A stretch of DNA of 38,530 nucleotides. Origin: an uncultured Candidatus Saccharibacteria bacterium. Lineage in GTDB: Bacteria; Patescibacteriota; Minisyncoccia; Spechtbacterales; 2-12-FULL-38-22. The stretch spans positions 39,803-78,332 of the forward strand of contig CAYMUG010000001.1 in assembly GCA_964393575.1 (NCBI GenBank), in the 5' to 3' direction. The position numbers are program-made. Position 1 is the stretch's first letter. Every line of letters starts with the position of its first letter. Below, piece by piece: positions 16,701 through 20,022 of the stretch.

Positions 16701-19700
16701 AGGTATGAGAAAAACCACAATTTTAAAGTTTACAAGCGGTGTCTAACCAGTAGCTTAAATATTGGTTTAGAATAACCGCTTGTAAAAAGCGGTTTTTATT
16801 TGCTCTGATTCGTCATTTGACGGAGAAGAGTTTGTACCTTAACAACTAAAGAGAATCATATAATTCCGCGGTGATATTATGTAAAGGCGCGCGGCGGATG
16901 CCTAGACACCGGAAGAGGAAGAAGGACGTGGCTTAGCTGCGATAAGCCTCGGGGAGGTGCGTAGCAACCTTTGATCCGGGGATCTCCGAATGGGGGAACC
17001 CGGCATGGTAAACCCATGCTATCCGACTTTGCGTCGGAGCCTTACCCGCTGAAGTAAAACATTTCAGTAAGCGGAGGAAAAGATACCGCAATGGTATTCC
17101 CTTAGTAGCGGCGAGCGAAGAGGGATTAGTCCAAACCCGATTTCGGTTTTTAACCGAAGCCGGGGGTTGTAGGACTGCTATACTCACGGGAAAAATTTAG
17201 AAGAACGACCCTGGAAAGGGCGGCCATAGAGGGTAACAGCCCCGTAATCGAAAAATTTGACCTGTGAAGCAGTATCCTGAGTAGTTCGAGGCACGAACAC
17301 CTCGAGTGAAGCAGGCCAAACTATTGGCCAAGACTAAATACTTCCGGTGATCGATAGTGAACTAGTACCGTGAGGGAACGGTGAAAAGTAGCCCGGTGAG
17401 GGCGGTGAAATAGAACCTGAAACCGTGTGCCTACAAGGACAGGGAGGTCGTTCCTCACTGTGTTCGGAACGGAATAACCAATGTTCAATAATCAATAACC
17501 AAACAATCTCCAATAACCAAACTTGATAAAAGTATTCAGAATTTAGTATTTGTAGTTTGAGATTTGTTTGGAAATTGGTGATTGGTAATTGGCGATTTCG
17601 CCCGAGCGTAGCGAGGAGCGACTGACCTGGTGCCTTTTGCATAATGAGCCAACGAGTTTGTATGTACTGCTTGTGTAACCCCGCCCCCTATGCGTTAAAG
17701 TTTGGAGTTTTCAAATTTAAAGTAATGCTTAGGGGGCGGGGGAACGCACAGGGAAACCGAGTCTTAACAGGGCGATTCCGCAGTACATACAAGACCCGAA
17801 ACCAGGCGAGCTATCCATGGCCAGGGTGAACCCCGGGTAATACCGGGGGGAGGCCCGAACCCACTTCTGATGCAATAGGAGGGGATGAGCTGTGGATAGG
17901 AGTGAAAAGCTAATCGAGCCTGGTAATAGCTGGTTCTCCCCGAAATAGCTTTAGGGCTAGCTCCCGATGGACTTTTGTGGAGGTAGAGCACTAGTTGGTC
18001 TGTCGAGGCTTTGCCGAGGCAGATCAGTTAAACTCCGAATTCTGCAAAAAATTTGTCGGGAAGTTAGAGCGTGGGGGCGAAGCTCCATGCTCGAGAGGGA
18101 AACAGCCCAGACCGCAGTCTAAGGCCCCTAAATGCAAGCTAAGTGGTAAAGGAAGTAGGATTTCTAAGACAGCTAGAAGGTTGGCTTAGAAGCAGCCATC
18201 CTTAAAAAAGTGCGTAATAGCTTACTAGCCGAGAGATCCTGCGCCCAAAATGTAACGGGGCTAAGCTTGCTGCCGAAGACGCGGAGCGCGCATCGCACAG
18301 CGTTGCGAGCTGGTAGGGGAGCATTTCTATCGCGCAGAAGGTTCGATGTGAGTCGGGCTGGAGCGATAGGAAGAGAGAATGTTGGCATGAGTAACCGCAA
18401 TTCCGATTAGATATCGGAACGCCGAAAGCCCAAGGTTTCCTTGGCAATGTTAATCAACCAAGGGTTAGGCGGGCCTAACGCGGGGCCTGAAAGGGTCACG
18501 CGGATGGTTAGCCGGTTAATATTCCGGCCCTTCTTTCTCATATGTGATGGGGTGACGGAGTTCTGTACTCAATGCGTATTATCGGATTTACGTCTGTATA
18601 CTGAGGTGGCGTACGGAGAAATGCCGTACGCACTGCACCGAGGTATGCAGAAACCTTGTTCTACGGAACAGGGGATATTGAGGAGCGGACTTCCAAGAAA
18701 AACCTCTAAACGTGAGTAAGAAACCGTACTGCAAACCGACACAGGTGGGCTGGTGGAGGACACCAAGGCGAACGGGTGATTCCTCGTCAAGGAACTCGGC
18801 AAATCAGCTAGGCGTAAGTTCGCGATATGCCTTCCCCGGCCGTTCCTCACTGTGTTCGGAACGGAATAACCAATGTTCAATATTCAATAACCAAACTTGA
18901 TAAAAGTATTCAGAATTTGGTAATTGGTAATTCCGCCCGAGCGTAGCGAGGTGCGGCCGGGGCGCAGCTAAAGTGTGTCTGGCGACTGTTTATCAAAAAC
19001 ACAGGTCCCTGCGAACCCGTAAGGGGATGTATAGGGGCTGACACCTGACCAATGCTGGAAGGTTAAGCGTTGGCGGTTATCTCGATTTTTATCGGGATAG
19101 CTGACCGGCGCAAGCCCCAGTGAATGTCGGCGATAACTATAATCGTCCTAAGGTACCGAAATTCCTTGTCTGGTAAATTCAGACCCGCAGGAAAGGTGTA
19201 ACGACCGGACAACTGTCTCGACGAGGAGCCCGGTGAAAATACAATACCGGTGAAGATGCCGGTTACCCGCGGAAAGAGGGAAAGACCCCGGGAGCTTTAC
19301 TACAGCTTTTCATTGTTTCAGTGTTTCAGATGCGAAGAGTAGCGGGGAGGCTACGAAATTCCGATTCCGGTCGGGATGGAGCCGCCCATGAGACACCCGC
19401 CTTCTGGAATGCTGCGACTAACCCCGATCTAAACCGTCGGGAGACAGTGGATGGCAGGTAGTTTAAGTGGGGCGCTTGCCTCCTAAATAGTAGCGGAGGC
19501 GTCTACTAAGGTCGGCTAGCTCCGGATGGAAATCGGAGTGATAGTGTAAAGGCACAAGCCGGCTTAACTGCAAGGCAAATTAGCCGCGCTTTGTGAAACC
19601 TTGTATTTTGTTACAAGGGAGTAACAGACCCAGGACGCATCACACTGTGTGTGATGCGGAAATCTCAATAACCAAGGACACAAGGTACAAACAAATACCA

Positions 19701-20022
19701 ATAACCAAATTAAAATTCCAAACATTTGATTATTAAATGTTGAAATTTACAATTTGTTTGTTTCTTGTATCTTTTAATTTGGAGTTTCCGCCATCGCGCG
19801 TAGCGCGATGCGGCTTGGGAGATGCGAAAGCAGAGCTTAGTGAACCGACCTTCCTCTGTAGGAGGGAGGAAGATCATCAAATAAAAGTTACCCCGGGGAT
19901 AACAGGCTGGTCGCCTCCGAGAGTTCACATCGACGAGGCGGTTCGGCACTCCGATGTCGGCTCGGCGTATCCTGGAGCTGAAGCAGGTTCCAAGGGTTGG
20001 GCTGTTCGCCCATTAAAACGTC

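Follow-up and report, generated by a model that had tools for sequence, protein, structure and literature searches.

The classical intervening sequences (IVSs) of bacterial ribosomal RNA (rRNA) genes, such as those of Salmonella, Leptospira, Coxiella and Campylobacter, lie in helices 9, 25 and 45 of the 23S rRNA and are excised by RNase III without religation. Other bacteria carry palindromic miniature elements, among which the Correia hairpins are substrates of RNase III and the Rickettsia elements insert into genes, including RNA genes. Short uncharacterised insertions in the rRNA genes of bacteria belonging to the candidate phyla radiation (CPR) were reportedly noted by Brown and colleagues in 2015. 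Here we analyse a 38,530-nt stretch of contig CAYMUG010000001.1 from an uncultured Candidatus Saccharibacteria bacterium (the whole stretch is hereafter called the window), in which the 23S rRNA gene carries a 230-nt insertion in domain V, at the base of helix 86 (H86). [quoted passage not shown] CGAGCRUAGCGAG 3′). Neither an Rfam family nor a published description of the core or of the element family was found (literature searches covered the core sequences as well as rRNA IVSs of a palindromic or mobile kind).

Like the classical IVSs, the family adds sequence to helices of rRNA genes, has complementary termini that form a stem of about 26–30 bp with a mismatch and a bulge, is sporadic and occurs in hosts with a single-copy rRNA operon; some of its copies are also located in H25 and H45. 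Unlike them, it has one and the same 13-nt core in copies at about 12 sites, which are spread over 16S and 23S genes and across phyla, and contains no open reading frame (ORF); the window copy is located in domain V, at the 3′ base of H86, not at the tip of helix 9, 25 or 45. No report of an IVS at this domain V site was found in our literature search. With the REPINs and BIMEs, the Correia/NEMIS elements of Neisseria and the Rickettsia palindromic elements, the family shares a size of 100–180 nt, inverted ends, a long hairpin, a high copy number, tolerance inside functional genes or transcripts, and ends that can each form a hairpin, as REP sequences do. Unlike these elements, it shows no RAYT or transposase and no target duplication, and its known copies are concentrated in rRNA helices, in the sense orientation in all cases but one. 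We know of no sequence similarity between the CPR element and the REPIN, Correia or Rickettsia families. The Coxiella IVS has a terminal stem of 28 bp with one mismatch and one bulge, which RNase III cuts in the middle (PMC4990558). Tsurumaki et al. (2024; PMC11270868), in the parts of the article consulted here, reported many short CPR rRNA insertions without ORF or intron features, which were left uncharacterised and suggested to be RNase III-processed IVSs. Our elements resemble these insertions in their CPR hosts, their size (below 200–250 bp) and their lack of intron features and ORFs; the same parts of the article class insertions by intron models and ORFs and mention neither a common core or terminal structure nor a rule of orientation or copying from site to site.

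The 23S gene of the window is 3464 nt long, against 2925 positions in the Rfam large-subunit (LSU) model, and contains large insertions at E. coli positions ~546 (H25), ~1704–1767 (H63) and ~2353–2369 (H86). An earlier note on this DNA had placed about 230 extra nucleotides in domain V, and alignment to ten CPR 23S genes fixes their number at exactly 230 between GCCGCGC, the 3′ strand of H86, and AGAUGCG; the downstream flank is AG-AUGCGAAAGCAG, that is, the last two nucleotides of H86 followed by H87. Relatives read ACUGCAAGRC-loop-GYCGCGC at this site, then AG, then H87. The native H86 hairpin, GGC-AAAUUA-GCC, is intact upstream of the insertion, which comes between the final two base pairs of H86 and the remainder, 2 nt before the 3′ end of the helix. 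The Rfam LSU model shows 233 inserted nucleotides against 3 in the model at about position 2384 and draws them in the loop of the hairpin 2373–2397; since the alignment with relatives is more exact than this local alignment, we place the insertion at the 3′ base of H86 and not in an apical loop. The following features were delineated in the insertion:

19590 to 19819, plus strand: the whole 230-nt insertion in 23S domain V (from the alignment with CPR 23S genes that lack it)
19590 to 19628, plus strand: side hairpin ACCUUGUA-UUUUGU-UACAAGG, preceding the core element (RNAfold)
19629 to 19819, plus strand: core element, a single long hairpin bounded by CCCAGG and CUUGGG (RNAfold minimum free energy (MFE) and centroid structures, z −7.0)
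19641 to 19653, plus strand: 5′ core CACACUGUGUGUG, a variant of the consensus CUCACUGYGUUCG
19690 to 19790, plus strand: interior arms homologous to intergenic positions 7225–7320, including the exact 23-mer 19751–19773
19795 to 19807, plus strand: 3′ core CGCGCGUAGCGCG, a variant of the consensus CGAGCRUAGCGAG

The pairing of the termini, already seen in the earlier note, is reproduced by RNAfold as a continuous helix running from CCCAGG to CUUGGG through both cores, interrupted by two A.C mismatches and a single bulge (MFE −99.8 kcal/mol, z −7.0). The insertion does not itself contain an ORF of protein size, and no second copy of the side hairpin exists anywhere in the window. The H86 site is empty in 18 of the 18 other CPR 23S genes compared and the termini are shared with sibling insertions, which is not the pattern of a lineage-wide expansion segment without common termini. 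The H86 copy thus combines two hallmarks of IVSs, absence from relatives and complementary termini that form an extended stem. The proximity to the peptidyl-transferase region that had been pointed out for this insertion stands for the primary sequence and only for it.

Paired cores, CACUGUGU and GCGUAGCG, are common to four insertions of the window's rRNA operon, located in the 16S gene and in H25, H63 and H86 of the 23S gene. The core 8-mers CACTGTGT and GCGTAGCG each occur four times in the 38.5 kb, always on the plus strand, always paired and exclusively within these four insertions (chance expectation 0.3 and 0.5, respectively), in agreement with the earlier proposal that the third 23S insertion has the same core helix as the others. 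The siblings of the H86 copy and an intergenic relative are:

12849 to 13009, plus strand: sibling in the 16S gene, in the variable hairpin at E. coli ~184–193 (cores 12855–12867 and 12991–13003)
17448 to 17621, plus strand: sibling replacing the tip of 23S H25 (cores 17454–17466 and 17603–17615)
18840 to 18956, plus strand: sibling in 23S H63 (cores 18846–18858 and 18938–18950)
7204 to 7320, plus strand: core-less intergenic relative, located between dnaE and rnhB, which are divergent (homology to the H86 interior)

All four insertions form long, nearly fully paired hairpins (RNAfold z −7.0, −8.3, −7.4 and −10.9); an MFE scan of the whole window was dominated by G+C content and hence uninformative. 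One deletion aside, the H63 and H25 copies are 92–97% identical. The 16S copy has only its termini in common with these two, and what the H86 copy has in common with the other window copies is limited to the central 8-mers and the architecture. The intergenic relative contains a 20-nt GC palindrome, CCTGCCTGCCGGCAGGCAGG, which is also the apex of the 16S insertion, followed by the arms homologous to the H86 interior. The 23-mer that the earlier note had found both in the insertion and upstream of rnhB is indeed identical at 19751–19773 and 7283–7305 (0 expected by chance) and turns out to lie within a homology of about 95 nt; the flanking block, TTTGATTATT, is likewise present at both places (7263–7272 and 19725–19734). 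The dnaE/rnhB intergenic region (7085–7321) might represent an element in decay, or else a partner with which the interiors recombine.

Wider scans detected the core pair in dozens of other genomes. The scan with a two-core pattern covered one genome per species and allowed a gap of up to 137 nt, so that copies of the H86 type (gap 139 nt) were undetectable and their absence elsewhere applies to the 18 other CPR 23S genes compared; it returned 14 loci, nearly all in CPR metagenome-assembled genomes (MAGs) from several phyla (labelled Andersenbacteria, Saccharibacteria, Campbellbacteria, Peribacteria, Moraniibacteria and Parcubacteria, with three doubtful bin labels). Thirteen of these matches are inside rRNA genes; the remaining one, at the end of a contig, comes with a 44-nt 16S match. 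A looser core pattern matched more than 120 metagenome contigs, from which L069 and a few other GC-rich matches were discarded as simple tandem repeats. The core pair was found at 79 distinct places inside rRNA genes, mostly of CPR bacteria, and at all but one of them it is in the sense orientation relative to the rRNA. These places correspond to about 12 sites, among them helices 25 and 45, known from classical IVSs, with about 100–180 nt between the cores. In E. coli numbering, and with helix names in the standard nomenclature, the 23S sites are ~225–233, 271–283, 540–556 (H25), 706–759, 1163–1186 (H45), 1704–1770 (H63), ~2200–2225 and 2353–2369 (H86, in the window alone), and the 16S sites are ~70–100, 184–210 and 450–484. 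The 23S gene of locus L007 (Peribacteria) alone carries four core elements, at helices other than that of its ORF-bearing IVS. In three loci, L006 (labelled ‘Bathyarchaeia’), L012 and L016 (labelled ‘Bdellovibrionales’), the 23S gene is bacterial and agrees with the CPR-labelled loci in its core elements and in their sites, which makes these bin assignments doubtful.

Two alternative folds were compared on 62 distinct rRNA-borne termini (alignment A2): an extended duplex of the 5′ end with the 3′ end, and local hairpins in which each core pairs with its own flanks. The extended duplex pairs 86.7% of positions, with a covariation of 0.419 versus 0.193 in shuffled alignments, and the slid-register controls pair 32–46%; the ten columns of the basal helix are 95–100% paired, with many compensatory changes. 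The local hairpins are weaker overall (74% paired, covariation 0.264 versus 0.152). The duplex keeps non-standard pairs at certain core positions (A.C in 59/62, G.U in 55/62 and U.G in 56/62 copies, and at one further position U.G in 27 or C.A in 26), and the positions mismatched in the duplex become Watson–Crick pairs in the local hairpins, A-U in the 5′ core (59/62) and G-C in the 3′ core (58/62). At 68 of the 78 sense-oriented places, the 5′ core has A/U, and the 3′ core G/C, at core positions 4 and 10. In the H86 copy, the 2×2 mismatches of both local hairpins are exchanged for standard pairs (CACAC-UGU-GUGUG and CGCGC-GUA-GCGCG). In our reading, the core retains the memory of, or the present need for, a hairpin at each end. 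Each element has about 65 paired bp, interior included, with about 7 G.U pairs, and the sense strand folds better than the antisense strand in 60 of 66 copies (−71 versus −61 kcal/mol), which supports the view that the extended hairpin is the constrained structure in rRNA transcripts. A G-poor 5′ arm and a C-poor 3′ arm, present in the window copies, do not hold across the 66 elements and were rejected as a family feature.

Several genomes carry nearly identical copies at different sites: the H25 copy matches the H45 copy with 98% identity in L132 and in L044 and the H63 copy, also with 98%, in L100, and identities of 91% (two copies in L013) and 88% (copies in L003 and in L014) were found elsewhere; the median identity between loci is 62%, conserved cores included. 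Judging from these sequences, the identity of 88–98% across sites of one genome points to recent copying. At H25, at H63 and at the site E. coli ~271–283, the element replaces the tip of the helix. The elements exhibit traits of MITEs and REPINs, namely inverted termini and multiple dispersed copies (four in the window, 79 places in rRNA genes, and copies outside rRNA).

The latter were found on about half of the matched metagenome contigs, which have no rRNA gene and carry the same 13-mer in dispersed palindromic elements of 110–170 nt. A typical element of this kind consists of GATTCCTCACTGCGTTCGGAATGAC, a central GC hairpin with a T-run, and GTCATTCCGAACGCAGTGAGGAATC, and the stem flanking its core covaries (ATTCC/GGAAT, ATTTC/GAAAT, ATCCC/GGGAT and others). 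These contigs span G+C contents of 0.26 to 0.71, and the presence of a Flavo-1 RNA on one of them suggests Bacteroidetes. Rfam gave no match to the element at 20 non-rRNA loci carrying it, and a search of a plasmid collection with the consensus non-rRNA element gave only chance-level matches. In four unrelated contigs (L040, L049, L089 and L095), a small GIY-YIG nuclease gene (PF01541) is located 0–200 nt from core elements and is flanked by them in two cases; it is the sole recurrent non-syntenic neighbour, and its proximity is only a lead towards a cognate nuclease. Core units also occur in tandem or clustered arrays reminiscent of REP/BIME clusters on the non-rRNA contigs L058, L064, L088 and L119/L078, for instance with a 45-nt period in L058 and as 17-nt GTGAATGACAGTGTGGG repeats in L088.

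On the observed family, fold, covariation, orientation, multi-site distribution and intragenomic copying rests the reading that we cautiously favour, that of a non-autonomous mobile palindromic element acting as an rRNA IVS, with RNase III cleavage and rRNA fragmentation; the cleavage, the fragmentation and the mode of mobility are its probable, deduced parts. At the DNA level, such elements would be copied from helix to helix and between genomes, and only sense-oriented copies at surface helices would persist. At the RNA level, the element would be transcribed in the pre-rRNA and fold into a self-contained hairpin of about 65 bp, which in the case of the H86 copy would protrude from the base of H86. 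The basal duplex of about 30 bp would most probably be cut on both strands by RNase III, as in classical bacterial IVSs, leaving the 23S rRNA in four pieces (cuts in H25, H63 and H86) and the 16S rRNA in two, the pieces being held together by residual stems and tertiary contacts. The window supports this route by encoding the enzyme:

9628 to 10320, plus strand: RNase III gene rnc, candidate processing enzyme (Pfam Ribonucleas_3_3, Ribonuclease_3 and dsrm)

Several points weigh against this reading. RNase III has little sequence specificity, so that the conserved non-Watson–Crick positions of the core are left unexplained, and these positions are also Watson–Crick in the alternative local hairpins (59/62 and 58/62). 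The H86 copy is located 2 bp from the end of its host helix, so that a cut would leave little local pairing to keep the fragments together, and five breaks per ribosome, one of them in the 16S rRNA, would be unusual. No direct repeats indicative of target-site duplication border the four window copies, and no transposase was detected among the scanned ORFs of the window, which also yielded no GIY-YIG gene. Excision itself is something that we infer from sequence.

The hairpins could instead never be cut out and remain part of the mature ribosome, forming long expansion segments that are exposed to solvent and to which a core-recognising protein perhaps binds. This possibility, which we hold to be rather unlikely, would account for the uniform orientation, for the conserved non-Watson–Crick core positions, as expected of a protein-binding site, and for the pairing of the whole interior (~65 bp), well beyond the basal 25–30 bp that RNase III needs; all insertion sites are peripheral helices that bear expansion segments in eukaryotes and archaea, which also speaks for retention. 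It fits poorly with the sporadic presence of the elements, exemplified by the absence of the H86 copy from the 18 other CPR 23S genes, with interiors that diverge almost wholly between genomes (the median identity of 62% includes the cores), with the presence of the same core in non-rRNA intergenic elements, and with the recent copying between sites, which resembles a selfish element rather than a functional part of the ribosome. Metatranscriptome mapping by Brown and colleagues is also said to have shown that CPR 16S insertions are absent from the rRNA. An artefact, whether a chimeric assembly or an rRNA copy that is inactive or a pseudogene, is extremely improbable: metagenome-assembled rRNA operons are prone to misassembly, but the same architecture recurs in more than 60 independent assemblies, which effectively refutes this explanation, the stems show compensatory covariation and the flanking rRNA is intact (Rfam scores of 2438 bits for LSU, over the full model, and 1423 bits for the small subunit, SSU).

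The conservation of the 13-nt core across CPR phyla, while its surroundings covary or diverge, raises the question of an enzyme dedicated to it. A nuclease specific to the sequence or structure of the core, not RNase III, might recognise it as a duplex or in the form of two local hairpins and excise the element, and an RNA ligase might rejoin the rRNA, which would make it a protein-dependent bacterial rRNA intron. The compensated difference between the two ends (A-U at the 5′ core versus G-C at the 3′ core) and the Watson–Crick pairs that replace both 2×2 mismatches in the H86 copy are in line with this proposal, and breaks at the base of H86 and in the 16S rRNA would be less harmful if the ends were rejoined. 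Nevertheless, we consider it quite unlikely, given that no candidate enzyme was found for it, that inspection yields no bulge-helix-bulge geometry on the core, and that core variation consists entirely of transitions, which are also expected from descent under a pairing constraint without any sequence-specific reader. A broader version can be held only tentatively and strikes us as doubtful: an undescribed cross-phylum family of hairpin-ended elements, whose structure is read by a dedicated protein, would have colonised the surface helices of both CPR rRNAs. Each end would be a small hairpin with a conserved 2×2 mismatch and a triloop, and the ends would be told apart by A-U versus G-C; the protein would be a nuclease acting either on DNA, to move the element, or on pre-rRNA, to take it out, possibly with religation. 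Candidates for this role are the small GIY-YIG proteins encoded beside non-rRNA copies.

Other identities were rejected. Rfam detected no group I or group II intron at gathering score in the window and, at E ≤ 10, matched the insertion only to generic long-hairpin (miRNA precursor) models, far below thresholds. By inspection, no bulge-helix-bulge, kink-turn or sarcin-ricin motif can be drawn on the core; in the archaeal bulge-helix-bulge arrangement (CCUC-ACU-GUGU-UCGG against CCGA-GCGU-AGC-GAGG), the central 4 bp fail to form. Derivation from an ORF-bearing IVS was rejected for the sole case considered, an IVS in the Peribacteria 23S gene (L007, 1690–2225) that encodes a 129-aa 23S_rRNA_IVP protein and has a 25-bp terminal stem without the 13-nt core. 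A different hairpin IVS without the core occupies the site of the window's 16S copy (E. coli ~190) in the 16S genes of L005 (5300–5760), L102 and L105; it encodes an 86-aa GIY-YIG protein and has a stem of its own, CCCAGCACUUAAUUUU / AAAAUUAAGUGCUGGG.

Many of the short ORF-less insertions of CPR rRNA genes, hitherto unclassified, can now be defined by a 13-nt core, a covarying basal helix and a fixed orientation, which allows them to be found, counted and removed from alignments, with a practical bearing on 16S- and 23S-based detection, primer design and phylogeny of CPR lineages. The elements copy between helices and into both rRNAs, including a domain V site for which no report was found, and link CPR rRNA insertions to palindromic repeats located outside rRNA in other bacteria. 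If they are excised, carriers would assemble their ribosomes from at least five rRNA pieces; if they are retained, long bacterial expansion segments would be part of CPR ribosomes; and if a dedicated protein reads them, they would represent a new class of rRNA intervening element, beyond the RNase III IVSs.

The window contains a single rRNA operon in the order 16S (12676–14311, with a 145-nt insertion after E. coli ~190), tRNA-Ile, tRNA-Ala, 23S (16870–20333) and 5S. Its closest rRNA relatives in the comparison set are CPR MAGs (72–82% identity), and the genes near the operon include the housekeeping genes thrS, dnaE, rnhB, nusB, rnc, rpsP, trmD, ftsW, ftsK and recA, as well as those encoding RpoB (1075 aa) and RpoC (1208 aa). 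Both these relatives and the dense packing of genes suggest a genome of the CPR/Patescibacteria. The 16S–23S spacer measures 2.5 kb and contains, between tRNA-Ala and the 23S gene (15831–16511, plus strand), a 226-aa membrane-protein ORF (Pfam MS_channel_1st_1, E 1e-21). Homologues of this ORF (E 1e-42 to 1e-58) were found just 5′ of the 23S gene in both loci checked, L003 (Andersenbacteria) and L013 (Saccharibacteria), and in at least eight further rRNA-bearing CPR loci; it may be a conserved protein gene in or adjoining the rRNA operon. The 23S gene has an additional lineage-specific extension of ~50–70 nt without the core motif (17656–17730, E. coli ~586–616), formed by CCCCGCCCCC ... GGGGGCGGGG around an AT-rich loop, and the 23S–5S gap (20368–20412) contains a 12-nt palindromic unit, AATCATATGATT, repeated three times in tandem. 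Finally, the ORFs for the ribosomal proteins S16 (206 aa, 10409–11029) and S6 (249 aa, 36507–37256) are about twice the usual length, their additional parts being of low complexity and repeat-bearing.

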